Part shown: one piece after another, positions 43,329-59,497 of the stretch
Layout of the letters: each line of letters starts with the position of its first letter
Numbering within the stretch: position 1 is the first letter of the stretch
Assembly: GCA_963811105.1 (NCBI GenBank)
Contig: CAWEPZ010000011.1
Coordinates: 960,001 to 1,024,000 of the forward strand
Reading direction: 5' to 3'
Source: Candidatus Bathyarchaeota archaeon
GTDB taxonomy: Archaea; Thermoproteota; Bathyarchaeia; Bathyarchaeales; Bathycorpusculaceae
DNA: 64,000 bases
Position numbers and translations under genes: made by a program
Notes under the pieces: generated by a model
Seen by the model: only the letters and a program-made list of their open reading frames with translations
What the model was told of the DNA's origin: nothing
The model's database searches: none

Positions 43329-44918
43329 ATGCCTGTATTTCTTTGCATCCCTCCAGTTTCTTCGTTGGTTCCTTATCCAGCAATTCCATACTTAACAAGT
43401 AGCCTGAAAGCAAATAATCAAAAGGTAAGTACCTTTGATCTAAACATAAACGCTTTTAATTTAACTCTTTTCCACCAAGGCGTTGATATTAAACCCGGGG
43501 AAATTTTACGTAAGAATAATCATGGAATAAAGGCGAAATGCGCAAGAGTTCCTGAGGCAAATCTTTACTCGACCATGCGAGAAAGCAAAGAAATTTTTGA
43601 ACAAATTATGTTCGAAGAGGCTTCTGATCAATTAAGTTATCCCTATTCGAGTCTACAGTCCAGATATATTATTAGCAAAGAATTAAAGCAGGCAATAATT
43701 TCGGATGTTTGGAAAATTTGTAATAATTGGTTTTTGGAAGTTGCCAATGATTCCAAAGAACAAAGTATTGTAGGATTTCATGTAATAAGTCAAACTGGAT
43801 TGATGTGGAGCATACTTCTTGCACGAAAATTAAAGAAAATTCTGCCCAAAATTTTGACAGTCTTGGGGGGTCCAGCATTCCTCGCATGGGAAGAAGTTCT
43901 CTCAGCCAATCCAGAAATTGACGTAATAGTTCGAGGGGAGGGTGAGGTCACAATTTCTGAGATAGCTAATTTGTATGACGGCAGTTTGGAATCAATAAAA
44001 GGAATCAAGGGAATTTATTACAGAAACGAGAAAGATAAAATTGAAACCAATGCGGATCGCCCATTAATAAAATCTCTTGACGCTTTGCCTTTTCCATATT
44101 ATGGTGATTTACCGTTAAAAGAATATCCTCAGAATAAGTTTGGAATGCCTATAATACCCGTTGTTGGTTCTAGAGGATGTATAGGAAATTGTGTTTTTTG
44201 CGTTGAAAAACGTTTATGGGGTAACACTTATCGGATGCGCTCACCAGAAAACATCGTTTCCGAGTTCAAAAACATTAAAGAAAAATATGGAACTTCTGTT
44301 ATTCGCTTCAATGACAGTTTGATAAATTGTAATATCAAATCTCTAGAAACATTCTGCAATTTATTGATTGAAGATAACATCAGAATGCAATGGATGGGTA
44401 ATGCTCGAATCCGACCTGAAATGACTGATAAATTGCTTGGGAAAATGGGCCAAGCAGGTTGCATAGGATTATGGTATGGCATAGAATCTGGGTCTCAAAG
44501 AATATTGCATAAAATGAAAAAAGGATATAATTTGGAAACCGCTAAAAATGTAATCCACGATACTGCTAGAAACGGCATTCGAGTTCTAATATTTATGATA
44601 GTAGATTTTCCAGGAGAAACACCAAACGATTTTAGACAGTCCGTTGATTTCTTAAAGCAGAATCAAGATTACATTGATCAAGTCAGCATTTCACGCTTTG
44701 GCGTCTTGCATGATTCAGAAATAGCTCTCAGCCCAAAAAAATATGGAATTGAAGTTATTAGAAGAAAAATGGGCGTTAATTACAGTTACATCTATTCACC
44801 TAGACCAGAGAGCAATCGATATGAAATCTTAGATTCAGCCTGGAAGCAATTAAGTATGCTAAAAAAAGCAAACCCAGCTAGAAATAATCGCGCAAAAATA
44901 ATCGTCCCATATTACTAA
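43329..44918 (+). CDS. Cobalamin (B12)-binding radical SAM protein (class B methyltransferase-like)
   Basis: B12 domain (LGGPA, RGEGE), SRGCIGNCVFC, RSPENIVSE, GIESGS and FPGET motifs. Confidence 0.92.
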   Translation: MPVFLCIPPVSSLVPYPAIPYLTSSLKANNQKVSTFDLNINAFNLTLFHQGVDIKPGEILRKNNHGIKAKCARVPEANLYSTMRESKEIFEQIMFEEASDQLSYPYSSLQSRYIISKELKQAIISDVWKICNNWFLEVANDSKEQSIVGFHVISQTGLMWSILLARKLKKILPKILTVLGGPAFLAWEEVLSANPEIDVIVRGEGEVTISEIANLYDGSLESIKGIKGIYYRNEKDKIETNADRPLIKSLDALPFPYYGDLPLKEYPQNKFGMPIIPVVGSRGCIGNCVFCVEKRLWGNTYRMRSPENIVSEFKNIKEKYGTSVIRFNDSLINCNIKSLETFCNLLIEDNIRMQWMGNARIRPEMTDKLLGKMGQAGCIGLWYGIESGSQRILHKMKKGYNLETAKNVIHDTARNGIRVLIFMIVDFPGETPNDFRQSVDFLKQNQDYIDQVSISRFGVLHDSEIALSPKKYGIEVIRRKMGVNYSYIYSPRPESNRYEILDSAWKQLSMLKKANPARNNRAKIIVPYY

Positions 44919-45098
44919 ACGAAGTTTCTTGTAAAGAGAATTTCTCCTTTTGCTTTTTTGTCGCTAAAGATGGTGATAGTTAAGGCAAAACGTACAGGAG
45001 ATTTCTGTTAACCACGTTTTTCAAGAGTCTATTAACAATTTTGCAAATCCTCATAAACATAAATAGCGGTACTTCATAAAAATAGAGTGCGATTATTT

Positions 45099-46272
45099 TT
45101 GTCAAAAGATAAATCCGTAAACAAAGCCCTCTCTAAAAAGTCTACAAGAACTGTTCCTAAGAAAAAATCAGATTCAGCTGGTTCAAAAAAAAGATTAACC
45201 AAGAAACAAAATGAACGCCCACATACACTTTTTGAAAAAAATCAACATTTTGAAAAATTGGATCCCGAATCTTATGCGAAACTGCAATCAACAATACATG
45301 AAGTCGTTGAAAAAACGATGCCCGAATACAAAGAATGGCTAAATTCTGCATTTGGCGAAAAAATTATTCCCGATGATTGTTCCAATGCCCGCCCAACACT
45401 TATCCAAAGGTGCCGCGTCTGTCCAAAAAATTGACGATATTGTAGTTGCTGCTTTCAACAAAGCTATGAAAGCAGTACGTCAAGCTTCGGAAGAAACTGA
45501 GCAAACGGAAATTATGGAAAAATGGTTCAAAAAAAAATTTTTTGACGACGTTTCTGACATACGACCTGAAAGCAGAAACTATTACAAACATTGCGTACAC
45601 AATTTCGTTACTCAATTTTTCTCCAAAGAAAAAATAGCTGGAAAAAGAATCCTCGACTTCGGATGTGGACCAGGATACTATTCCACGATTTTGGCCCAAC
45701 GCGGAGCAGACGTAACTGGAATTGACAGAAGTGCATTTCTTATTTACAAAGCAAACGAACTCAAACAAAAACTAGGACTTAAGAATATAGAGTTTTTTCA
45801 AGAAGATTTTCTTGATTTTGAGACAAATGCAAGGCCCAAAGAGTTTGATTATATCATAGCGATAGACACAATTGTGAGTTTTGACTTTTCCAGACAGAAG
45901 CATAACCATGAGGATTTCACTAAGGCATTGAGCAAAATCAGCAGAATTCTGAAAGATCAAGGTAGATTTTTTATAATTGAGGCGCATCCTTTTTTCGGTC
46001 AATTTGCTAAAGGAATAAAATTCTCAAGCGAAGGACATTTTCATGGTCGTTTATCTCATTATAAAATAGAATATAAGCGTAAAGATAATCCTAATCATTG
46101 GTTTACCCTTGACGAAATGACGAAGGCTCTTAATGAGAACTGTTTGGCAATTTGCAGGATTTATGAGCCTGATCCAAGTGTTGAATTGGAAAAAGAAAAC
46201 GCCCAATTATTCAAGTTTTTCCTGAAGTATCCACACATGATTGTATATGAAATATGCAAAGTGAGAAACTAA
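45099..46272 (+). CDS. Precursor-paralog scaffold fused (via a +1 frameshift near 45398) to a class I SAM methyltransferase
   Basis: ORF 45087-45434 carries the leader homolog EKLDPESYAKLQSTIHEVVEKTMPEYKEW. ORF 45352-46272 carries the follower homolog QKIDDIVVAAFNKAMKAVRQASEE, then ILDFGCGPG, VTGID, LKDQGRF and EAHP. Confidence 0.75.
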
Positions 46273-48055: not shown

Positions 48056-50698
48056 TTATCGTTTTCTGAGTATCAGAATGGCTGTTGCGACTGAGAGGAT
48101 AACTACGATTATTATTGCGATTACTCCGGCGACTATGGTCATTGTGTAGTCTGGTGTTACGGATTGTGAAGCTGCTTGAGAAGGTGCCAATGTTGCTGCT
48201 GGACTAACTGCTATTGCTGTTGCTGCTCCTGAACTGCCATATGAGTCGTCTCCTGCAAATGAGGCAACAATTTTGTATGTGCCTTCTGTTGGTGGGGTCC
48301 AAGCCATCTCAAATGTGCCGTAGTATGCGCTTGAAGTTACTGTTCCGATGTTGATGACTTTGCCAGATGAGTCTATAGCTGTTAGTGTTACTGGTATGCC
48401 AGTCATGGTAACGTTGTGGTACATTCCATCTATTGGAATTTGCATGTGTAGGTATTCCATTTGAGTCGACATTGAGTCTGCGGAAACGCATGGCGTACCT
48501 GGTTGGGCTGGTGATTGATCCATAACTGTTCCTCGTATTAGCACTTGGGTTCCCAATGGTGTAGCGGTGTCGGGTGCCGTCACTGTGGTTTGTGTTAAGC
48601 CTTTGCCAAAGACGTCTAGGTAGCCGTCGTATTCATCGAGGAATGCGAGGTAGCCGTCTGATATTGCGCCTTCGAAGTAGCGTGAGCCTGGTACTCCTTG
48701 ACCCATGGTTATATTCCATATGCCTGCGCCTGTGGTAGCGTTAATGCAGAAGAGTCTCCAGCCTCTTGTAATTGGCTCGCTTGGCGTATGTTCACAGTTG
48801 AAGGTGAAGAGTTTTCCATCAGCCACGTAGCCTGAGCTGTGCCAGGAATAGTTTCCGCCATATGGTGTTTCAAATGGAGGTGCGGGTGCTGTGAAGGTCC
48901 AATCGATCTTGCCTGTGATCCAGTTGATCGCGTGGACTCCTGCGTAGTCATTGTCGAATATGTATCCGTAAGCTGATTGCACATCGTAAGCTCCGAAGAC
49001 TCCCCATGGCCATTCTGACAGCGGGCTCGTCCAAACCAGGTTCCCAGTCTTTAAGTCCCAGCAATCCCAGTCGCCGCCTAACAAGCGGACAGCTGCTTTG
49101 CCGTGATCGACAACCATTGGGGTTCCAAAGGTTTGTCCCCAGCCTGAACTAGTGTCTGTGGTTTTGTTCCAGAGGAGTTGTCCAGTGTATATGTTTGCTG
49201 CTTGTATGAATATGCCAACGTTTACTCCTAAGCCGGCTGAACTGATTGCGCCTGTGGTGACAGCGATTCCTGATTCATAATCAACTGTTCCCAGACTGCT
49301 AAATGGCCAAGAAATGTTGCCCCATATTCTTGCGGTGAAATTGTCAACAACTGTTTGCGCGCCTCCGCCGTGAACTTGCTCAGAGCCTGCGTTATTTGCT
49401 ATGGTCCAGTTGATTAAACGGTAGGTGACAGATGATCCTGAGCCGATTGTTTGTATGCTCAAGACCCATGGGTCTGCGTAGAATGTGCCGGTAGATACTC
49501 CGGAGGGGACTCCTGTGAAGTTTGAAACAACTGTGCCAGTTAAGGGGTCGTACTTGATTACTCGACCTGAATTTGAGCCTGACGCTCCAGTTATCGCTAC
49601 AAAGTATACTGATTCGCCTACTCTTGCTTCTGCGCCTGGAACTTCTGCGCCGCCTCGCTCATAGGTGATTATGGTGGGTATTGTTTCTCCAGTGGCTACT
49701 GGGCGTTCCCAGTATATCTTGCCTGTTTGCAGATCATAGCATCTCCATTCGTTGACTGCGCTAACTGTAGTAGGGTATTGCCATGTGCCGTTGATGTATA
49801 CTGGTTGTGTGGGTTCGCTTATGACTTCATAGCATCTTCCTGAGTAGATGATGGTTGGGTATCCACTTCCCGTTAATCCTCCGGCTGTCCAAGAGAGTTG
49901 TCCTGCTGGTCCACCGATGAGTCCGGCGATGAATGTTGGTCTTTGCCAGACTATGTGTGCTGTGTTTGGTGCTTGGACGTAGGGTGTGAATCTGTAGTTG
50001 CTCATGTATTTGTTGGTGTTTGCTGGCCAGTAGGTGCTTCCTCCAACAACGCCTGTTGGAGGCCAATTGCCTAATATTGGCCACCATTCTCTGTTGAAGG
50101 ATTCAGCTGGTCGTGACCAGTAATCTGTTGGTAATGCTGCTGGAGGCCAAGATGCTACCGCGTTTTGTTGCACTGTTACTGATACTTGAGGTGTTGTTGC
50201 TGGTTTGTAGTAGGCTGAGTCTAGAAATGCAGAACCGGATGTTCCGTTTTCGACGACACTTCCTTGGAGGTAGTATCCTGCGGGGTAGTATTGACCTAGG
50301 AAGTTAAATTGGAATTTGTAGGTACCGGCTGTGTCTGGGGTGTAGGGGAACCATGCTGTTGAGTCGCCTGCGTAGGATGATATTGGGCCTACAGTGGTGG
50401 TTGTTCCATCTGGTTTAGTGATTGTGACTGTGAATGCGTTTACTAAGTCTCTGTTTATGTTGATTGGAGGTTGAAGCCAGATGTTTACAAGTAACTCTTG
50501 CCCAACTCCGATTGGGTTTGGAGTGACATCAAGATAAGCAGTAGGAGTCACAGTAATGCTTGCAGTTACTCCGGCTGGTAAAGGTCCTGCTACTGGTTGG
50601 CTTAATGCTTTTACTGTCATTTTTGTCGTGGTTGCTATTACAGAAGCCATCAAAATGATTATGATAATTGCAGTTATCTTTTCACGATTTATTTTCAT
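48056..50698 (-). CDS. Large PQQ-like beta-propeller cell-surface protein (paralog 2)
   Basis: Same architecture and motifs as 34747-37326 (LPTDYWSRP, NREWW, EHTP..RGW, MEYLHMQ). Confidence 0.9.
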   Translation of the reverse strand: MKINREKITAIIIIILMASVIATTTKMTVKALSQPVAGPLPAGVTASITVTPTAYLDVTPNPIGVGQELLVNIWLQPPININRDLVNAFTVTITKPDGTTTTVGPISSYAGDSTAWFPYTPDTAGTYKFQFNFLGQYYPAGYYLQGSVVENGTSGSAFLDSAYYKPATTPQVSVTVQQNAVASWPPAALPTDYWSRPAESFNREWWPILGNWPPTGVVGGSTYWPANTNKYMSNYRFTPYVQAPNTAHIVWQRPTFIAGLIGGPAGQLSWTAGGLTGSGYPTIIYSGRCYEVISEPTQPVYINGTWQYPTTVSAVNEWRCYDLQTGKIYWERPVATGETIPTIITYERGGAEVPGAEARVGESVYFVAITGASGSNSGRVIKYDPLTGTVVSNFTGVPSGVSTGTFYADPWVLSIQTIGSGSSVTYRLINWTIANNAGSEQVHGGGAQTVVDNFTARIWGNISWPFSSLGTVDYESGIAVTTGAISSAGLGVNVGIFIQAANIYTGQLLWNKTTDTSSGWGQTFGTPMVVDHGKAAVRLLGGDWDCWDLKTGNLVWTSPLSEWPWGVFGAYDVQSAYGYIFDNDYAGVHAINWITGKIDWTFTAPAPPFETPYGGNYSWHSSGYVADGKLFTFNCEHTPSEPITRGWRLFCINATTGAGIWNITMGQGVPGSRYFEGAISDGYLAFLDEYDGYLDVFGKGLTQTTVTAPDTATPLGTQVLIRGTVMDQSPAQPGTPCVSADSMSTQMEYLHMQIPIDGMYHNVTMTGIPVTLTAIDSSGKVINIGTVTSSAYYGTFEMAWTPPTEGTYKIVASFAGDDSYGSSGAATAIAVSPAATLAPSQAASQSVTPDYTMTIVAGVIAIIIVVILSVATAILILRKR

Positions 50699-50934: not shown

Positions 50935-51669
50935 TCACTGGATAGAGTCTCTTTGATTAAGCAGTTTTTGAATTTGCTGCAATATATCTTCAGACGAAGA
51001 AGCCTTGAAATGTGCAGGTTCGCGAACTCCCGGTCCGACTTTGGCGTACTTTGCTCCGATTTGTGTCATTCTCTGCGTTAGGCGTAGCTCGGGATATACT
51101 TCGTCTATTACTGACAGCAAGACGGCTTGCTCGGAAGATATGATCTGCCCACCTTCGAAAAACTGAGCAGGCTCGATTGCCGACCATATCATCTCTATCG
51201 TTTTCGCTGAAAGAGCCCCTTGCAACGGTTGATCAATTAGACTTGCAGCTTGATGCGCGGGTTCAATCCATTCATTTGAGAGTTTTAGTTTGAGCGCACT
51301 TAACCACAGCAGATAAATATTGAAAGTTCCTGCAACAACTGTAATCAGTTTCTCTTCATTGATGCCTTTGAGGACTGGCATGAGTTCACTCTCAAACACG
51401 GTACCTTTAAGGTTTTCAGCACCCAAGCTAACTGATTTGACCATTCCGCCATCTACTTCGATTTTGCAAGGCAAGGTGGAGGCAACAACAAAGCCAATTT
51501 GTTTGGATGCACGGTCAAAGGCTGCGTCTATCTTTGTCTGGTATTTCTCTTTAATCAACTGGTAAATCGCAAGCAGGTCTTCTCTGTATTTGATAATCTT
51601 CGGATGCGCGGGTTCCACCCAAGGTCTCTGCTTTCTCAGCATTGTTTCATCTATTCTTTTTTCATCCAA
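50935..51669 (-). CDS. Hypothetical protein with four EPAH/EPAQ motifs; putative substrate of the upstream B12 radical SAM
   Basis: WVEPAH (aa 17-22), WIEPAH (134-139), AIEPAQF (164-170) and VREPAHF (215-221). RBS GGGGTGA; 13 nt after the rSAM stop. Confidence 0.8.
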   Translation of the reverse strand: MDEKRIDETMLRKQRPWVEPAHPKIIKYREDLLAIYQLIKEKYQTKIDAAFDRASKQIGFVVASTLPCKIEVDGGMVKSVSLGAENLKGTVFESELMPVLKGINEEKLITVVAGTFNIYLLWLSALKLKLSNEWIEPAHQAASLIDQPLQGALSAKTIEMIWSAIEPAQFFEGGQIISSEQAVLLSVIDEVYPELRLTQRMTQIGAKYAKVGPGVREPAHFKASSSEDILQQIQKLLNQRDSIQ

Positions 51670-51682
51670 TTTTTCACCCCCT

Positions 51683-53461
51683 TCACAAATTTCTTATTCT
51701 CTTCTTGAATTCGTCATATGGAAGGTAGTTTTGTCCAATTGCAATCATGTTTAGTATCTCGTCAGGGTTCCTTCCTTGAAAAGAATATGAAGTTTCTAAT
51801 CCCACATTGGAACCAGCCGTTATCAAATTCGACGATTCCATAACATCTTCGTCATTCAGAATAGCCTGTGTATCTAATCCCCCGTTTCTATAAGCTTTTT
51901 CAAGGTAGTTGATTATCCGATCGCCTTTCACAAGCAGAACCGCACTTCTTCTGTCGATTCTCTGTCTCATTTCTCTTGCAAAACGATGAATTTTTAGCTC
52001 ATCCTCAACGTTGACCTCAGAGACAAAATCAAAAATACCAGACAATTCTTCAAATGTGTCCAGATTAGTCTCTTTTATGAAATTTCGAACCGCTGCCCTC
52101 AGGCTCTGCGAGAGAATTTCAGGATGGAAACGCCGAAGAATTTGATAGTAAAAATCAACCTGCATGTTAAAGTAGTGCAGACCATTGTCATTGAAATTCC
52201 TGTCGAAAAAGGCATAATTCGCGATCTTGTGGAATACTTCGACCTTTGGGTCTTTTATGCGGTAGTCAAATCCGAAATAGTCGCCGAGCAAGCGTCCCTG
52301 CGTGCGTAGTTTCTCTTCGAGCCCTGTTCCTGCGTAAGCTTCTGCCCGGCAGAAATTAAAGGGATTTTCTATATGGCGTTCCATAAAACGAAGGTTGATG
52401 AGTAAATCGTTCATGGTTGCATCGAGTTCAAACATCAAGAAGTTGAAAGCAACATGAACATCGAAGTCATTGAGAATCTGCAGCGCATTAAGAATGTCCC
52501 CGATTGTTTGTTTGCGGTTTAGGTTTCTCAAGCCGTTCTCAGAAGCATTTTCAACACCCAAGAATACTCGGAAAAGGCCAAGCTCATCAAGAACGGATAT
52601 AGATTCGCGGGTAATGCTGTCAGGTCGAGCCTTCACGGCGATTGCGATTTTTTCAACTCCATTTCTTTTCAGCTCGTCCCGTAATTCCTTGAAGCGTTGC
52701 AGGGTTTGCTGGTTGTCGGCAAGAAAGAAGTTGTCATCGTGGAAGTTGAAAATTCGAATGCCGTATTCAAAATAAAGTTGCTTCATCTCGGCAACGATGT
52801 TTTTTATGCTGCGGACTCTGAACTTCTTGCCTCCTTGGTGTTCATACCATGCGTTTATGCTACAGAAAGCACAGTTCCGCCAGCATCCCCTACTGCTCAG
52901 TATGCCCGCAATCGGCTTGTCGAAGTACTTGTTGAATGTTGTTCTTTTCGGAAATGGCAGTGCGTCCAGGTTTTCCTGCTTAATGCCAGGTGAACATCTT
53001 ATTGTTCCTTCAGTCCCCCTAAAAGCTAAGCCGGGAACATCTTCCAGTCTGTCCAAACTCTGAGCCAGCTTACAAAGCAGCAGTTCGCCTTCGCCCAGGC
53101 CGACCGAACTAAAAGCAGGAAAGTCCTTTAGCAGTCTTTCGTAGTTGAAAGAAGCAAAATGCCCTCCAGCAACTATATGTCCCTTGTAACCTGCGTCCCT
53201 TAGCCTCTGTGCCAGGCTGCAAAATTCTCTTGCTCTGCCTGTAAACACCATGGACAATGCCGTTATTTGCGGGTCTGTCTGAATGATTTTTTCTACTACT
53301 GAGGAAATCTCGGCTTGAGAGTTGAAAGGTACGATTTGTGTCTCTATGCCGACTTGCTCTAATGAAGATGCCATGTACCGAATGCCGATGTTTTCCTCTA
53401 ATTCTGCGCCAACAAGGGCAACTTTCACCTTATCCCCCCAATCAAAGTGTCTAAAGTGCAA
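51683..53461 (-). CDS. Cobalamin (B12)-binding radical SAM protein (likely start GTG 53428)
   Basis: ENIGIRY, AGGHFAS, GEGE, SSRGCWRNCAFC, FHDDNF, RPD and LGVE motifs; long C-terminal extension. Confidence 0.92.
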   Translation of the reverse strand: MHFRHFDWGDKVKVALVGAELEENIGIRYMASSLEQVGIETQIVPFNSQAEISSVVEKIIQTDPQITALSMVFTGRAREFCSLAQRLRDAGYKGHIVAGGHFASFNYERLLKDFPAFSSVGLGEGELLLCKLAQSLDRLEDVPGLAFRGTEGTIRCSPGIKQENLDALPFPKRTTFNKYFDKPIAGILSSRGCWRNCAFCSINAWYEHQGGKKFRVRSIKNIVAEMKQLYFEYGIRIFNFHDDNFFLADNQQTLQRFKELRDELKRNGVEKIAIAVKARPDSITRESISVLDELGLFRVFLGVENASENGLRNLNRKQTIGDILNALQILNDFDVHVAFNFLMFELDATMNDLLINLRFMERHIENPFNFCRAEAYAGTGLEEKLRTQGRLLGDYFGFDYRIKDPKVEVFHKIANYAFFDRNFNDNGLHYFNMQVDFYYQILRRFHPEILSQSLRAAVRNFIKETNLDTFEELSGIFDFVSEVNVEDELKIHRFAREMRQRIDRRSAVLLVKGDRIINYLEKAYRNGGLDTQAILNDEDVMESSNLITAGSNVGLETSYSFQGRNPDEILNMIAIGQNYLPYDEFKKRIRNL

Positions 53462-53757
53462 GGGACAAATGACAGTTCCTCGAGAACAAAGATTGCGTTA
53501 TAAGAATTTTCCGCCGGGTTATTTGTAGATCTCGCGATATTCGACTTTCTGCACATCAACAGGTCTCTCCACAGATAGTAAACATTAGAAATTTCGCCAA
53601 ATCAAAAACCTCACATAAATGAGTGACCGCAAATTGCTTTTCCATATTATCTCTTATTTCATTAGTCATTTGATTAAGGCGTCTCCGAAAATCATCTTTG
53701 CCTCATCGCGTATTTAATAATATGTTGTTGCATTTGCACTGCAACTAACTTCAGTTC

Positions 53758-54123
53758 TTGGTTGAAAAACCTAATATTCGTTTGACATCAAAGAATAAAC
53801 AGGAAACACCTATGTTTGAACCCCATCAAGGAAATGTAAGAATAGATTGCGACTTTGATAAAGTATGGGATTCTTTGAAGATTAAAGGTGAGCTTTCTTT
53901 GCAGACTGAGATAGAAGGGAAACCATTTATTGCAAAGGCAACCGTCGCTACAAAAGGACTTCATTCAGGTGAAAAAGTAATAGTTTTTCTTCACGAAAAG
54001 AATGGAAAACGAATTGAATCTGCAAGAGGGTACGAATGCTGCTGGGGACATTATTATAACTGTTATGGAACCAGAATTGGAATGTACTTTAAAGCATTGG
54101 TTCACTCAATGAGATTTTCATAG
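53758..54123 (+). CDS. Hypothetical protein
   Basis: 121-aa ORF with a YECCWGHYYNCYGTRIG motif. Confidence 0.6.
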   Translation: MVEKPNIRLTSKNKQETPMFEPHQGNVRIDCDFDKVWDSLKIKGELSLQTEIEGKPFIAKATVATKGLHSGEKVIVFLHEKNGKRIESARGYECCWGHYYNCYGTRIGMYFKALVHSMRFS

Positions 54124-54367
54124 TTTGTTTTCTGCTGTTCCGTGCTGTTCCATGTTTGAAATAGCTAAGGAGAAGCAAATTGCCGAAGCCCACAAATGGC
54201 CGATAGAACTATTTTTTAATCAGTGAACTATATGGAGAAAACAAAGCACCTCTATATAGAGGAGTATTATATTCCGAATGGTTCGTGTCCACGGATTAAA
54301 GTACGTAAAACCAGCCATTACTGCAATGACGGATACGATAAGACAACTGTGTTCTGATTAGATTATA

Positions 54368-55279
54368 GTGCCTTCCCAACAAAAATTGGCGATGACGCTG
54401 TTTTTTGGAAAAAGTCCTGCCTGCCGGTTAGAAAAAATTTATAAATATTTTGCCATAAATAGGGAGCGGTTGGCTGATAATTTGGGGAAGGTTACACGAA
54501 CTGTTTCACCCTCAATATTCTTTTTGCTCACATTCATTCTTTCATGGTCTATTTGGATTTCCTTGATTCTTGCTTCTTCCCAGATTTCTGAGGGCTTAAG
54601 CAATATTGTGAGGCTATTTGGCGTTTTGATGCCTGCTATATCTGCTATCATTCTTACAGCTTACTGCGCTGGTCGGTCTGGAATTGGGCATTTATTTTCT
54701 CGGTTGAAGATTTGGAAAGTTGGAGCTAAATGGTGGATAGCTGTCATTTTTGTCTATCCCGTTTTGCTTGTTATAGCTGGTTTGCTTTACAACTTGTCTA
54801 ATCCACCGTCAATGGTAAACCTTCTCCCTATAACCGCCGGCAGTCTCATAGCAAACGGCATTTTCCTTACAATAGCTGCGTTAGGAGAAGAAATCGGTTG
54901 GCGTGGTGTCGCTTTGCCTGCACTGATGAAAAAGCTCTCGCCTCTCATGTCAAGTTTGGTGTTGGGTCTTTTGTGGGCGGCATGGCACTTGCCGTTTTGG
55001 CTTCTTATCGGCACTCTTAGTCAATACGGATGGGCGTATTTCGTGATGAATTTCTTGTTCATTGTTCCAACTACATTCTTCATTACTTGGTTTTTCAATA
55101 ATACCAAGGGAAGTATTCTTCTTCCAGTTATTTTTCACGTTGTTTTTAATGTAGTAAATGTTGCAATCTATCCTGTCACAGGATCAGCTGAGGCTTTCGG
55201 AATCTTTATAATACTTCAGTTTGCAATTATGTTTGCAATTATTCCCTCCCTTAGAAAATCCAAAGCCTCTGACGTTTGA
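54368..55279 (+). CDS. CPBP/Abi (CAAX-like) intramembrane metalloprotease
   Basis: GEEIGWRG, WAAWHLP and FHVVFN motifs; multiple TM segments. Confidence 0.9.
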   Translation: MPSQQKLAMTLFFGKSPACRLEKIYKYFAINRERLADNLGKVTRTVSPSIFFLLTFILSWSIWISLILASSQISEGLSNIVRLFGVLMPAISAIILTAYCAGRSGIGHLFSRLKIWKVGAKWWIAVIFVYPVLLVIAGLLYNLSNPPSMVNLLPITAGSLIANGIFLTIAALGEEIGWRGVALPALMKKLSPLMSSLVLGLLWAAWHLPFWLLIGTLSQYGWAYFVMNFLFIVPTTFFITWFFNNTKGSILLPVIFHVVFNVVNVAIYPVTGSAEAFGIFIILQFAIMFAIIPSLRKSKASDV

Positions 55280-55345
55280 TTGTTAATATGCGGCAACATA
55301 AAAGGAGCGCTTGAGGTTCGGTTTAGTGTCGTCTGTTGCCACTTT

Positions 55346-56775
55346 CAGTAGATGGAAAAGTAGTTTTTGGATATTGATGCTTTGTTTATCCTGTCGTAAC
55401 CGATTATCAAGCGGCAGGGTCTGAGGATTGCTCTTTCATTGCACAGTTTTATATCTTCAGACTTCTATAGCAAATTAACTGGCGGAGTTTAGGGTTCGAT
55501 CTACCCGGATCGGCTTCCTCGAATGCATCCAAGAATGCTTTAGTGTCGAGGTGGCCCTAACCCGCCAATGATAAAGCCTTCAAAGTGCACAGCCAAACGA
55601 GTCAACGTCAAAAGTGGTTTACCAAACTGTTTCTTTAGAGCTCTGCAGAGCAAAAAATTAGCGTAGTGCCAAACATTGTACAGTACCACAGAAGTCATTT
55701 GGTAAATTAGTCTAAGCTTATAGTTGGTGCTTGTAGTTTTAGCCTGGGCATTATCTTGCACACGATAACCCGTTTCTATACCCCACCTGCGCCTGTACTC
55801 AGAAGGAATAAACAATGGCAACTTAATTGCTAATGACCTTGGAAGGTTTGTTGCAAAACCAAAATAGAGGTCAGAAACATTCAGCTTCTTCTTTTTCGGC
55901 AACTGCTCAACTGACCGCTTGTAAAGATACAGGGTAAAGCAGATGCTTTTCCTTTTGTTGCCTAAAATGAAACGTTTAGCTGACTGCTTGTCATCATAAT
56001 TTAGCATCGCTTCTTTGACCGTATCATGCTTAACTGCTGGAATAATAAAATAGACCTCTAACCTCTTGAGCGTAGCTATGACGTCTATTGTGAAGAATGC
56101 TCGGTCAAGCAGTACAATGCTAATGTGTATGCCGCGTGCCCTCGCTTCAAAGATTAGTTTCTCAACGACCTCTGCTTTCTCACTGAACTGGTTAACAGTA
56201 CTAGAATAGACTGTAAGTCTTCTTCCCGCTTCAACAATGTCAATGCTAGCATATGTATAGCCCCAGGTCGTTCCATTCTCCTGTTTGCCACCTATCACGT
56301 TTTTAGCGTCGGGATCACCATAGAAGGGCTGCCTTGTATAGTCGATTGCAACCACCGCTTTTCTTCTAAAGAGGCAGTGGCTTCTTAGGATAAGGAGAAT
56401 CTGGTCGTTGGCTTGGATTAATGCATTGCGAATTTGCTTCTCCGCTAAGCGCTCTATTCTTCCTCTGAAGGTTCTTCCCGTGGGAACCTTGTTTGGTGTG
56501 TTGCATTTTTCTGAGAGGTCAGCTAAGCCACTTTCAGCGTAGCTTTGAGAAAGTGAGAGCTGGATTAGACATTGATTTATGTCGCTGCTGATGTAGAGGC
56601 TGTTTTTAGCTACTGGAAATTGAAGATATTCGTTAAGCAAGTTGGCTGTGAACTTGAAGACTTTGCTGGAAACCTTTCGCTCTTTTGATTTACGTTTTGC
56701 CGTCTGAACACAATATCTCAATTATACGCACTAAGATAATATTATCAAACGTTTAAGGTACTTTTCCATCTACTG
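55346..56775 (-). mobile_element. Complete insertion sequence, ISH3/IS4-like, 1430 bp
   Basis: Perfect 17-bp TIRs CAGTAGATGGAAAAGTA (55346-55362 and 56759-56775); 5-bp TSD ACTTT at 55341-55345 and 56776-56780. Confidence 0.95.
55540..56721 (-). CDS. DDE transposase, ISH3/IS4 family
   Basis: VAIDYT, LLDRAF and YRRRWGIETGYR (Y-REK-type motif). Confidence 0.92.
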   Translation of the reverse strand: MRYCVQTAKRKSKERKVSSKVFKFTANLLNEYLQFPVAKNSLYISSDINQCLIQLSLSQSYAESGLADLSEKCNTPNKVPTGRTFRGRIERLAEKQIRNALIQANDQILLILRSHCLFRRKAVVAIDYTRQPFYGDPDAKNVIGGKQENGTTWGYTYASIDIVEAGRRLTVYSSTVNQFSEKAEVVEKLIFEARARGIHISIVLLDRAFFTIDVIATLKRLEVYFIIPAVKHDTVKEAMLNYDDKQSAKRFILGNKRKSICFTLYLYKRSVEQLPKKKKLNVSDLYFGFATNLPRSLAIKLPLFIPSEYRRRWGIETGYRVQDNAQAKTTSTNYKLRLIYQMTSVVLYNVWHYANFLLCRALKKQFGKPLLTLTRLAVHFEGFIIGGLGPPRH

Positions 56776-56878: not shown

Positions 56879-59497
56879 ATGAAAAACAAATTTTCGACAA
56901 AACTGACAACAATCACTCTGATTCTATTGATGGCTTCAATTGCAGTATCAACAATTCCAATCCATCCAGTTCAAGCTCAAGAAGCATCGCACGGTGGTTC
57001 ACCTGGAGGAGGATATGAAGGACCAACAACAGTTCCAGCCGGTCAGACTGCTGACTACACGATTCAACCCATTGCTTTCCTGAGCGTTTCACCCGCCACA
57101 ATCGGTATCGGTCAAACGCTCCTGGTCAACGTGTGGATTACCTTCCCCTCAGGTGAGGGCAAATATATGGTAGGCTACACGGTGCACATCACTAAGCCAG
57201 ACGGTTCAACAGACGATGTTCCTCTGAAATCGTACGTCGCGGACGGTACAGCCTATTTCACCTACGTGCCTGATCAAACGGGTCAATGGACGTTCTTGTT
57301 CACTTTCGCAGGCGAATATTTCCCAGCAGGATACTATGTAAGCGGACAATACTCCACCAGCCGAACAGGCCAGTTTGCAAACGCGATTTTTAACCCTTCT
57401 GACTACGTTGCACCAGCCACTTCCCAAGTGAGAACTTTAACAGTGCAGAGCGATCTTGTTTCATCTTGGCAGTCACCGCTTCCAACAGACTACTGGACGC
57501 GCCCAATTGAACCGAACAACAGAGAGTGGTCTGCTATCGCAGGAAACTTCCCATTCACCGAAGATATAGGCAGTGCAGAAAGTTGGAGTGATGAATGGTA
57601 CGGTCCCTTCATCACGGCTCCAAATACACCACACATTGTCTGGTTCAACCAAGTAAACGTAGCAGGCATAACTGGAGGAGAAACCGGTCTACAATCCACG
57701 CTTAGTGGTCCCGGAACTCCCAGCGTTATCTATCAGGGAAGATGCTACCAGACCATGACCATTTCCATCAACGGCGTTCCAACGAGTTGCGCAGTATGCT
57801 ATAACCTGCAAACAGGAAAACAATACTACGCCATACCGGGCGGAATCACACCAACACGCATAGCCTACTGGCCACCTGCTGTTGCAGGCGCTACAGGAAC
57901 TGTTCCAGGCGAGGCAGCAGACATTGGTTGGACAATTGACCTCTTCACAATAAGCGGCAGCTTCCTAATCAAAATCAACCCAAACACAGGGGCAGTAAGC
58001 TCGAACATTACACTTCCATCTGGCTTAGGCACCGCTGACATGTTCTACAGGGACGGCTACTACTTGAGCTACCGATCAGTCAGCACCGATAACATGACCC
58101 CCGCCGCCAACGTAACGGTCGCTAGGTCTACAACAGGATACCTAGTAAACTGGACAGAACAAGGCACTTCAACCAACTTCACAACAAGGATACGGAGCAA
58201 CATAACCGTAACAATACCAAACAGCTTGCGAACACTCTATGAAGTTGGTGCCTACGGAGCATTAGGCGCATATGACCCAGACACAGGCATAACCGTCATC
58301 CAGTCCAGGTTCATCTACGGAGGCTTCTACGGATCAAACTTCTGGGCAGTAAACCTAGTAACGGGACAAACGATATGGAACGTAACGACACCTGTTTCCG
58401 CGATCGAAGACGCTTACAGACCTACCAACGCATGGTGCAGACATGGAAGATACATAGCTGAAATGGAGCGAGGATACTTACAAGCATACGATGAATTCAC
58501 CGGTAAATTGCTCTGGACATCATCACCTGGAATTGACGCCTCGATGGGTGATTACCCATGGGGAGAATTTTACCAATACGATGAAGCAGCATACCAGGGC
58601 GTAATCTACGATGTGCAATACACAGGCATCTTCGCTTTCGATGAAACCAACGGCAACATACTCTGGCACTACGTTGATCCAGCCATCCCATTCGAAACTC
58701 CATATAACAGCGCTAATGGTTCAATCCCTTGCTATTCAATCTCAAGCATCAGAATTGCTGACGGAAAAATCTACGCGATGAACAGTGAACACTCACCCTC
58801 ACTACCAGCAACTCGAGGCTGGGGATTAATCTGCCTTAACGTCACCACCGGGGAGAAACTTTGGAAAATTAGCGGTACACAAATGAGCGCAGGTCCTGCA
58901 TCAGATGGCTACATGGTAACCAGCAGCAGCTATGACGGAACACAATACGTGCTAGGCAAAGGTCAAAGCCAAACAACAGTAACAGCACCAGTAAACACAG
59001 TAGCAAAAGACGGTAGCGTGCTAATCCAAGGCACAGTCTTAGACATGTCTCCCGCCCAGCCAAACACAGCATGCATCTCAGACAACACAATTGATACATG
59101 GATGGATTACCTGCATATGCAAATGCCAGTAGATGGACTATACCACAACATAACCGTCACAGGCGTACCAGTACTACTCGTAGCAACAGACTCTAACAAC
59201 AACAACATCAACGTAGGCACAGCAACAAGCGACACAACCGGCAGCTACCAAATCGCATGGACACCACCACACGAAGGCCTATACAAGATCACAGCAATCT
59301 TTTCAGGTACAAACTCATACGGAAGCTCTATTGCAGCAACAGGCCTATTAGTCGGACCAGCACCAACACCTATATCAACCCCAGTGGCAGCGTTACCGAT
59401 TGATACCACAAATACTATTGTAGGCATGGGCATCGCCATAATCATAGTAATAGTGATTATTGGCGCGTTAATCCTCATTCTCATGCGACGAAAGTAA
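56879..59497 (+). CDS. Large PQQ-like beta-propeller cell-surface protein (paralog 3)
   Basis: Same family motifs (LPTDYWTRP, NREW, EHSP..RGW, MDYLHMQ) and C-terminal TM with RRK. Confidence 0.9.
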   Translation: MKNKFSTKLTTITLILLMASIAVSTIPIHPVQAQEASHGGSPGGGYEGPTTVPAGQTADYTIQPIAFLSVSPATIGIGQTLLVNVWITFPSGEGKYMVGYTVHITKPDGSTDDVPLKSYVADGTAYFTYVPDQTGQWTFLFTFAGEYFPAGYYVSGQYSTSRTGQFANAIFNPSDYVAPATSQVRTLTVQSDLVSSWQSPLPTDYWTRPIEPNNREWSAIAGNFPFTEDIGSAESWSDEWYGPFITAPNTPHIVWFNQVNVAGITGGETGLQSTLSGPGTPSVIYQGRCYQTMTISINGVPTSCAVCYNLQTGKQYYAIPGGITPTRIAYWPPAVAGATGTVPGEAADIGWTIDLFTISGSFLIKINPNTGAVSSNITLPSGLGTADMFYRDGYYLSYRSVSTDNMTPAANVTVARSTTGYLVNWTEQGTSTNFTTRIRSNITVTIPNSLRTLYEVGAYGALGAYDPDTGITVIQSRFIYGGFYGSNFWAVNLVTGQTIWNVTTPVSAIEDAYRPTNAWCRHGRYIAEMERGYLQAYDEFTGKLLWTSSPGIDASMGDYPWGEFYQYDEAAYQGVIYDVQYTGIFAFDETNGNILWHYVDPAIPFETPYNSANGSIPCYSISSIRIADGKIYAMNSEHSPSLPATRGWGLICLNVTTGEKLWKISGTQMSAGPASDGYMVTSSSYDGTQYVLGKGQSQTTVTAPVNTVAKDGSVLIQGTVLDMSPAQPNTACISDNTIDTWMDYLHMQMPVDGLYHNITVTGVPVLLVATDSNNNNINVGTATSDTTGSYQIAWTPPHEGLYKITAIFSGTNSYGSSIAATGLLVGPAPTPISTPVAALPIDTTNTIVGMGIAIIIVIVIIGALILILMRRK

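Follow-up and report, generated by a model that had tools for sequence, protein, structure and literature searches.

Cobalamin (B12)-dependent radical S-adenosylmethionine (rSAM) enzymes of class B are best known for methylating unactivated carbons of peptides and proteins, PoyC and the bottromycin methyltransferases being examples; theirs are among the hardest C-H functionalisations, and most of their families have no assigned substrate. Here we analyze a stretch of 64,000 nucleotides (the window) from a Candidatus Bathyarchaeota archaeon (assembly GCA_963811105.1, contig CAWEPZ010000011.1, positions 960,001 to 1,024,000), in which the gene for a B12-binding rSAM enzyme (51683..53461, reverse strand) is followed by the gene for a 244-residue partner protein (50935..51669, reverse strand) that carries four Glu-centred motifs and belongs to no known family. 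Comparison of this pair with its relatives makes it, on balance, probable that the rSAM enzyme covalently modifies these motifs, most likely by C-methylation.

Several described systems resemble this pair. In proteusins (PoyB/PoyC with PoyA) a class B rSAM enzyme also stands beside a ribosomal substrate with a large conserved N-terminal part and several sites, but the partner described here has no NHLP or Nif11 leader detectable as an NCBIfam match, it comes without a conserved protease, epimerase or exporter, and it has one fixed Glu-centred motif where proteusins have many hydrophobic residues. Triceptide/3-CyFE maturases and XYG spliceases likewise combine one rSAM enzyme with a precursor bearing a very short motif in variable copies, although they are SPASM or non-B12 enzymes that form cross-links or excise atoms, unlike the cobalamin-domain class B enzyme and Glu-centred motif found here. 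Mmp10 (PMC8828468) and the Gln C-methyltransferase of methyl-coenzyme M reductase (MCR) are B12-rSAM enzymes that methylate a protein; like the enzyme proposed here, they act on a short segment of a full-size protein, but at one site in a housekeeping enzyme and not on a dedicated partner with 1-15 sites encoded in an apparently patchy, transferable cassette. ApyD is a B12-rSAM enzyme that makes beta-methyltyrosine in ApyA, the precursor of a peptide that is made on ribosomes and modified after translation (a RiPP); its target motif is Gly-Tyr-Leu-Tyr-Asp, and its co-expression in E. coli alongside the btu genes for B12 uptake gave a +14 Da product (PMC11117315). ApyD shares with our system the enzyme type, the short conserved motif and the C-methylation of one residue (proposed in our case), but it has a RiPP recognition element (RRE), a multi-enzyme cluster and a single C-terminal motif, whereas in our system an RRE and further conserved enzymes are absent and the motif is present in many copies. 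By analogy with proteusins, Mmp10 and ApyD, the system seems to work like a RiPP or protein-maturation pair, while falling short of the full definition of a RiPP cluster.

The two genes are arranged as the initial annotation of the window had described. The open reading frames (ORFs) at 51683-53461 and 50935-51669 are separated by an intergenic spacer of 13 nt (51670..51682), and the junction reads tga agggggtgaaaaa ttg, with the sequence GGGGGTG 6-7 nt ahead of the TTG start of the partner; because this strong Shine-Dalgarno-like element precedes the TTG, the two genes look translationally coupled. The four motif copies listed in that annotation (PWVEPAH, EWIEPAH, AIEPAQF and GVREPAHF) are present at E19, E136, E166 and E217, and outside them the protein is non-repetitive. 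In an alignment of 113 full-length homologues, the Glu, Pro and His of the four sites are 90-99% conserved. Copy 1 (EPAH, residues 19-22, 51604..51615, context RPWVEPAHP) has E in 99%, P in 96%, A in 92% and H in 95% of the homologues, and copy 2 (EPAH, residues 136-139, 51253..51264, context NEWIEPAHQ) has E in 97%, P in 97% and H in 93%. Copy 3 (EPAQ, residues 166-169, 51163..51174, context SAIEPAQFF; E 98%, P 99%) is degenerate in the window, as 96% of the homologues have His at this place (EPAHWF), and copy 4 (EPAH, residues 217-220, 51010..51021, context PGVREPAHF) is the unit that is tandemly amplified in homologues. All four lie on the reverse strand.

The partner family is large and has no annotated function. 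A word-indexed search returned 280 homologues, and an exhaustive search of cluster representatives gave 141 clusters at E <= 0.001, 53 of these at E <= 1e-30; those with a name all carry the label 'hypothetical protein'. The 244-residue protein had zero matches in Pfam, NCBIfam, PADLOC and PHROGs, the profile of its family matched nothing in the PDB by sequence, no Pfam family occurred in more than 3 of the 113 partners at E <= 1, and the best ESM Atlas feature matches of one homologue (P0059) were 0.78-0.79, under the lead level. In this family the motif is far more frequent than its composition predicts (0.0036 EPAH per 250 residues), and its copy number varies, a point that the initial annotation had singled out for checking: the strict form EPAH is found 0-10 times, most often 4 times, in the 192 proteins that have 200 residues or more, and the relaxed form EP[AVIPSG][HQ] 0-15 times, again with a mode of 4, when three longer proteins are included (195 proteins). 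The 876 instances in the 192 proteins yield the consensus P-(D/E/G)-(W/V)-x-E-P-A-H-(F/P/W), with Ala (89%) or Val (9%) at position +2 from the Glu, His (96%) or Gln (3%) at +3 and a minimum spacing of 7-10 residues. Extra copies occur as arrays of 8-10-residue units such as PGVREPAH or PWMEPVH. Insertions and variation in the partner cluster between sites 2 and 3 and just before and just after site 4, and the extra copies fall exactly in these indel-rich, hypervariable stretches. The three partners of 533-551 residues have only more repeats and no added domains; their arrays include PWMEPVHHMPWMEPVHPHTPWTEPVH, for example, and a recurring unit made of WPGVREPAH and an amphipathic helix. A fourth long protein recovered in our search for fusions, P0217 (525 residues), has a long hydrophobic N-terminal region and may be a merged gene call. 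A copy number that varies within hypervariable arrays is expected of a multi-site substrate and not of a fixed structural subunit.

Linkage of the two genes was surveyed from both sides. Starting from the partner in contigs of one genome per species (61 loci), an orthologue of the rSAM enzyme was present in 58, with 52-66% identity to that of the window and 96% in L001, the near-twin of the window; of the three misses, L014 and L058 end upstream at a contig end and L061 is a weak partial match. The rSAM gene is directly upstream on the same strand in 56 of these 58 loci, while the order is reversed in L009 and a hydrolase gene intervenes in L025. Starting from the rSAM enzyme (80 loci), an ORF of the partner family was found downstream on the same strand in 73, with a median projected gap of 67 nt; five of the seven misses have 252 nt of contig or less left, and the other two, L135 and L136, belong to a fused-tail clade described below. 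The expectation that the partner stays tied to this rSAM subfamily was therefore borne out, almost all misses being contig ends. Furthermore, pairwise identities among the rSAM enzymes correlate with those among the partners (Mantel r 0.83, a value reached in 0 of 999 permutations), a correlation to which shared species history also contributes. All-against-all clustering of the ORFs in the 61 loci revealed no third conserved gene: only the rSAM and partner families reach 58 loci, the next real gene family is near the cassette in at most 5, and the other large clusters are spurious frames overlapping both genes.

A further result is new here: a sister clade of the rSAM enzyme has no partner gene and carries a related motif, EMAP, on a tail fused to the enzyme itself. 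In L135 and L136, whose rSAM sequences are 45% identical to that of the window, the rSAM frame extends for 250-330 residues further, and a phylum-wide search added L141 as a third member. Scanning with the alignment of these three returned 80 loci, of which L144-L218 (75 loci) were analyzed. A fused tail of at least 100 residues together with absence of the partner gene was found in 55 of the 75, a separate partner gene in 8 (weak in L183), and shorter tails or frames cut at a contig end in the remaining 12. A FastTree phylogeny of 127 rSAM cores separates a partner-type clade (62 rows, support 1.0), which L183 joins at 0.62, from a monophyletic fused-tail clade (61 rows, support 1.0), and neither has exceptions inside. 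The fused tails are 100-500 residues long and contain 1-5 Glu-centred motifs. EMAP is their most widespread 4-mer (34 of 55 tails); in 200 composition-preserving shuffles it appeared in 0.36 tails on average and never in more than 3, and no 4-mer occurred in more than 13 tails. The 66 instances of the fused-tail motif give the consensus (P)-T-H-x-x-E-M(96%)-A(87%)/V(12%)-P-x-P, the pattern H..E[MTAVIL][AVMIL] occurs 73 times against 1.98 in shuffles, and 47 of the 55 tails have the consensus or the looser H..E pattern. NCBIfam has no model that reaches its cut-off for this clade, and Pfam found nothing in the three fused tails scanned.

Most of these tails (38 of 55) open with basic residues, an Ala/Leu/Val-rich stretch resembling a signal peptide and a lipobox-like Cys; in 30 of the 38 the first Glu motif follows 1-14 residues after the Cys, with more copies near the C-terminus. 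The frames, of 650-850 residues, thus hold a signal-peptide-like stretch at mid-frame (e.g. L179:2599-4932 and L190:2992-5109), and the predicted layout raises the question of whether a single polypeptide is cut to yield both a cytoplasmic enzyme and an exported lipoprotein, or whether an internal start gives rise to additional copies of the tail. Among curated families, NF040546 and NF040542 resemble the fused-tail clade in that enzymes of the B12-rSAM group bear a short conserved motif on their own C-terminus; their motifs, however, are of the Cys/Sec kind and terminate a soluble enzyme, as opposed to tails of 100-500 residues with 1-5 Glu motifs and, mostly, a lipobox-like Cys. A homology between the partner scaffold and a small domain of the fused tails was considered and rejected, as hhalign gave probabilities of 1-2%.

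The two motif forms are bridged by intermediates. Some partners adjoining the rSAM gene carry E-M-[AV]-P in the repeat frame of EPAH: P0087 has PGIREMVPFR twice in the same frame as PGIREPAHFR, the L081 partner has GVREMAPVSF and GVREMVPLSF, and the L093 partner has HHAEMAPYPL three times with one EPAQ left. Related variants are PIQELAPLST, present twice in P0170, the repeats ATE(I/V)IAYPSR and ATEMVPYS in the L183 partner, and HMCEMMM(E/R)P, found twice in the L156 tail, while the end of the L135 tail, WERTEPVHRRPGWEQTELVPR, has the EPAH and EMAP forms side by side. From one form to the other the Pro shifts from +1 to +3 and the His from +3 to -3, and only the Glu and the small hydrophobic residue at +2 (Ala/Val) stay fixed. 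As these are the only positions common to both forms, we infer that the Glu or the +2 Ala/Val is the reactive or key recognition position. Among the residues that had been put forward as modification candidates, Glu and Ala (or Val at its place) are thus retained, whereas this cross-clade comparison would disfavour His, Pro and the preceding Trp or Val.

The same motif forms bear on the possibility that the motifs are metal sites, the partner being a metal buffer or metallochaperone that the rSAM enzyme needs for cofactor supply or whose metal binding it tunes. His, Met and Trp are the residues employed by CusF and similar periplasmic Cu(I) proteins, and the arrays abound in these three and in Glu (e.g. 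PWMEPVHHM and HMCEMMMEP); the fused-tail form, moreover, resembles an exported lipoprotein with H-x-T-E-M-A-P sites. Metal ligation nevertheless leaves the invariant Pro and the +2 Ala/Val unexplained, the His is swapped for Gln or displaced between forms, other B12-rSAM enzymes need no such partner, and genes for metal transport or resistance are not conserved in the neighbourhood, all of which makes a metal function very unlikely.

The enzyme itself has the two sequence features that define a class B rSAM, an N-terminal cobalamin-binding domain and a CxxxCxxC radical SAM core. On the reverse strand of the window, the B12-binding Rossmann-type domain (PF02310, E 9.8e-15) covers residues 22-131 of the maximal frame of 592 residues (53069..53398), and the radical SAM core (PF04055, E 1.2e-17) residues 189-343 (52433..52897); the cluster motif C193-x3-C197-x2-C200 (nt 52862-52885), read from the translation, has Cys that are invariant in 55 homologues. 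The true start is more likely the GTG at 53428, which would give 581 residues: GGGGGA precedes it and an identical database protein has 581 residues. The core is followed by a family-specific, highly conserved region (about residues 345-530; 51872..52429), with dense invariant columns in the alignment and covered by no Pfam model, which may form a substrate-binding cap. No curated NCBIfam model reaches its cut-off on this protein, the best scores being 50-96 bits. These are 96.4 bits for BchE (TIGR02026; equivalog cut-off 481.35), 91 for HpnR (cut-off 650), 86 for a lipid (ladderane-type) B12-rSAM model (360), 75.9 for the RiPP maturation C-methyltransferase TIGR03975 (rSAM_ocin_1; subfamily cut-off 281.85), 71.5 for ApyD (750), 63.6 for NF040542 (RCCLKC-tail ArsL; 450), 57.9 for the MCR glutamine C-methyltransferase TIGR04014 (360) and 49.7 for NF040546 (CUAEP/CCAEP-tail rSAM; 500). 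The name BchE, which JGI annotation gives to many homologues, is a generic transfer; as the window protein stays far under the BchE cut-off, it should not be so named. By sequence, the PDB has only distantly similar entries (9ccb_A and OxsB). PADLOC gave the enzyme only 37 bits, for the candidate model PDC-M51A, and with no useful match of the cassette in PADLOC or PHROGs a known anti-phage defence system was rejected.

Taken as a whole, we propose that the rSAM enzyme and its partner could form a self-contained enzyme-substrate cassette, in which the cobalamin-dependent enzyme would recognize short, exposed Glu-centred motifs on a dedicated partner and modify a residue in or adjoining each motif. 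An rSAM lineage that is invariably tied to a short motif, placed on a partner or on a tail and floating in copy number, is most simply explained if the motif is the substrate site of the enzyme. The likeliest chemistry would be C-methylation of an unactivated carbon, a reading that follows from the reaction for which class B enzymes are best known. The initial annotation had taken EPAH to be a recognition or modification site, a putative role that gains in support from the sister rSAM clade with T-H-x-x-E-M-A-P on its fused tail.

Several observations weigh against this proposal. The modification is proposed from comparative genomics, and B12-rSAM enzymes with non-methylating chemistry also exist, between which and methylation sequence cannot discriminate. 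Two of the 195 family proteins have no motif and five have one copy; for the two motif-less homologues, P0177 and P0200, metagenome contigs gave only short matches with 39% identity, and no locus on a genome contig was found. No conserved protease or exporter lies near the cassette, in contrast with the usual definition of a RiPP cluster, although another element of that definition, a repeated or conserved core beside a modifying enzyme, is found here in the conservation of the motif, its copy-number variation and its linkage. In the fused-tail clade, if the signal-like stretch crosses the membrane the motifs would end up outside, beyond the reach of a cytoplasmic enzyme unless they were modified before export. 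Additionally, the motif sites are not the only strongly conserved part of the partner: Q44, F51, G59, W122 and A125 are invariant in the 113 homologues, so that EPAH was confirmed as highly conserved but not as the most conserved element. These residues, together with the strongly conserved blocks IDxAFDxxSxQIGFVVTTTLP and AIDEVYPEL, indicate that the partner has a folded scaffold besides its motifs, and such a conserved globular scaffold is not what one usually sees in a simple substrate and would be in keeping with a subunit.

The last point leads to the alternative that the partner assists the rSAM enzyme as an accessory subunit, scaffold or chaperone, its motifs being docking sites (short linear motifs) for the enzyme or a third component, and that the enzyme really acts on a small molecule, a lipid or another protein encoded elsewhere. 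Besides the invariant residues of the scaffold, this would agree with the far higher conservation of the rSAM enzyme (median identity 61%) than of the partner (44%), with the lack of a conserved protease or exporter, with the presence of the small-molecule and lipid enzymes BchE, HpnR and ladderane-type B12-rSAM among the best weak NCBIfam similarities, and with the existence of curated rSAM families with functional C-terminal tail motifs, such as the sub-cut-off match NF040546. We regard it as rather unlikely, since 0-15 copies in tandem arrays of 8-10-residue units within hypervariable regions are hard to reconcile with a fixed interface, no other substrate or pathway gene is conserved nearby (56 loci), and the cassette moves across phyla as a two-gene unit, which fits a self-sufficient module.

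Genes around the pair were inspected in a Pfam scan of up to two ORFs on each side (56 loci, 201 ORFs). Papain-family peptidases were found in five loci from different lineages (L001, L025, L026, L035 and L054), S9 prolyl oligopeptidases in L041 and L043 and a partial PD40/DPPIV_N propeller in L040, the latter three loci counting as one event because they are close relatives. Genes for SPASM-type, peptide-maturase-like rSAM enzymes occur in L035 and L039, those for YydG-like rSAM enzymes in L039 and L054 (75-92 bits, below the cut-off of 300), and those for LuxR-type regulators in L018, L022 and L025. These optional neighbours fit a context of peptide or protein maturation, but they are a minority pattern and absent from the window. 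They would also suit a special case of the substrate proposal, namely that the partner is a RiPP-like multi-core precursor whose modified 8-10-residue units are excised by peptidases encoded elsewhere or sometimes next to it. The repeat arrays resemble multi-core precursors, and the peptidases and the peptide-maturase-like rSAM genes (L035, L039 and L054) could serve such a role. Nevertheless, their presence in a minority of the 56 loci, the one-event status of the prolyl oligopeptidase loci, the lack of a conserved transporter and the position of the four motif sites at fixed places in or between conserved folded segments make excision of the units unlikely.

Two neighbourhoods can be described further. 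In Geomobilimonas luticola (L025), the gene between the rSAM and partner genes (L025:4649-5845) encodes a lipoprotein-like alpha/beta-hydrolase of 398 residues, and the 641-residue product of L025:6916-8841, 3' of the partner, is a papain-like peptidase fused to a hydrolase-like domain. In a metagenome-assembled genome of Methanoperedens (L039:3059-8409), two other rSAM genes flank the pair on the same strand, the SPASM peptide-maturase-like one 25 nt upstream and the YydG-like one (92 bits against 300) about 600 nt downstream, so that the four genes look like a larger maturation cluster.

Carriers of the cassette span at least 12 phyla of Bacteria and Archaea and are mostly anaerobes of soil, peat and sediment; they include Acidobacteriota, Geobacterales/Desulfuromonadales, Syntrophobacterales, Methanoperedens/ANME-2, Brocadia, Nitrospinota, Chlorobium, Anaerolineae, Myxococcota and Bathyarchaeota, among others. 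Cultured strains with the pair are Geobacter hydrogenophilus DSM 13691, Geomonas oryzae S43 and Geomobilimonas luticola JCM 17780. Around the window genome itself, which has a single copy, the distribution is sparse: the partner was not found in 60 relatives (36 of the same genus) and occurred in 0 of 300 genomes of the same class that were at least 80% complete. The rSAM tree intermixes phyla and domains, with Methanoperedens beside Brocadia and Nitrospinota, and one Bathyarchaeota group beside an acidobacterium. In addition, the window and its 95%-identical relative L001 are syntenic only as far as window position 53753, 290 nt upstream of the rSAM gene. We interpret the two genes as an accessory cassette that is patchy and transferable; catalogued plasmid and phage collections showed no match to the partner. 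Past the synteny break, window positions 53753-56721 encode a CAAX/Rce1-like protease, a DDE transposase and an orphan ORF of 121 residues, in place of which L001 has a Peptidase_C1_2 gene split in two ORFs.

With regard to cofactor supply and expression, the window genome has CobS homologues and 12 B12-binding domains. One CobS-like frame (G000:C2:145750-146444) has a short matching frame ahead of it with two in-frame TAG codons, which may point to a gene that is split or broken, or else to an artefact of the start site. Scans for promoters and terminators of bacterial type gave nothing above shuffled sequences, the host being an archaeon, and among RNA families, riboswitches included, none was associated with the cassette, either in the window or in the 11 loci scanned. 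A c-di-GMP-I riboswitch in the Brocadia locus (L028:7853-7946, reverse strand) and an Acido-Lenti-1 small RNA in an acidobacterial locus (L003:9018-9063, reverse strand) are probably unrelated to it because they lie downstream on the other strand. A single 350-nt contig spans the rSAM-partner junction, but the three runs concerned, labelled metatranscriptomic, are probably DNA and give no evidence on expression.

Elsewhere in the window, a second, unrelated B12-binding rSAM enzyme is encoded at 43329-44918 on the forward strand, with ApyD (159 bits) and the RiPP C-methyltransferase subfamily (148 bits) as best NCBIfam models, neither of which reaches its cut-off. After it come a Lys-rich ORF of 115 residues (45087-45434) and the gene for a class I SAM methyltransferase (45352-46272), and this is presumably the first of the modification systems counted in the initial annotation. 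A pair of paralogues, each of about 875 residues, is encoded on either side of the cassette, at 48056-50698 (reverse strand) and 56879-59497 (forward strand). Both combine a PQQ-type beta-propeller and Ig-like domains with a signal-like segment at the N-terminus and a hydrophobic anchor at the C-terminus, features by which they look like archaeal surface proteins, and similar proteins flank the cassette in L002 and L011.

No relevant report on the motif or the system was found in the literature searched, subscription journals and supplements being outside the search, which agrees with the initial annotation, to which no described pathway with this motif was known. In its widest form, our proposal would be that of a new and widespread post-translational modification system: a distinct superfamily of cobalamin-rSAM enzymes would modify the Glu or the +2 Ala/Val in E-P-A-H or E-M-A-P, either in trans, on a cytoplasmic partner with 1-15 sites, or in cis, on a lipoprotein-like tail before its export, and would produce a hitherto undescribed residue, possibly metal-binding or cofactor-like, in anaerobes of at least 12 phyla and both prokaryotic domains. 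So broad a claim is tentative, and we consider it possible rather than probable. In any case, a large uncurated family, with partners in 141 clusters at 50% identity and with over 130 genome loci, gains a concrete substrate hypothesis, with a protein, a site of four residues and both trans and cis architectures. If true, it would add a new protein modification and a new recognition logic, and it would offer a compact two-gene system in which to study and engineer B12-dependent radical chemistry on proteins. Furthermore, as the carriers are abundant anaerobes of soil, peat and sediment, the function of the modified protein could matter for their ecology.

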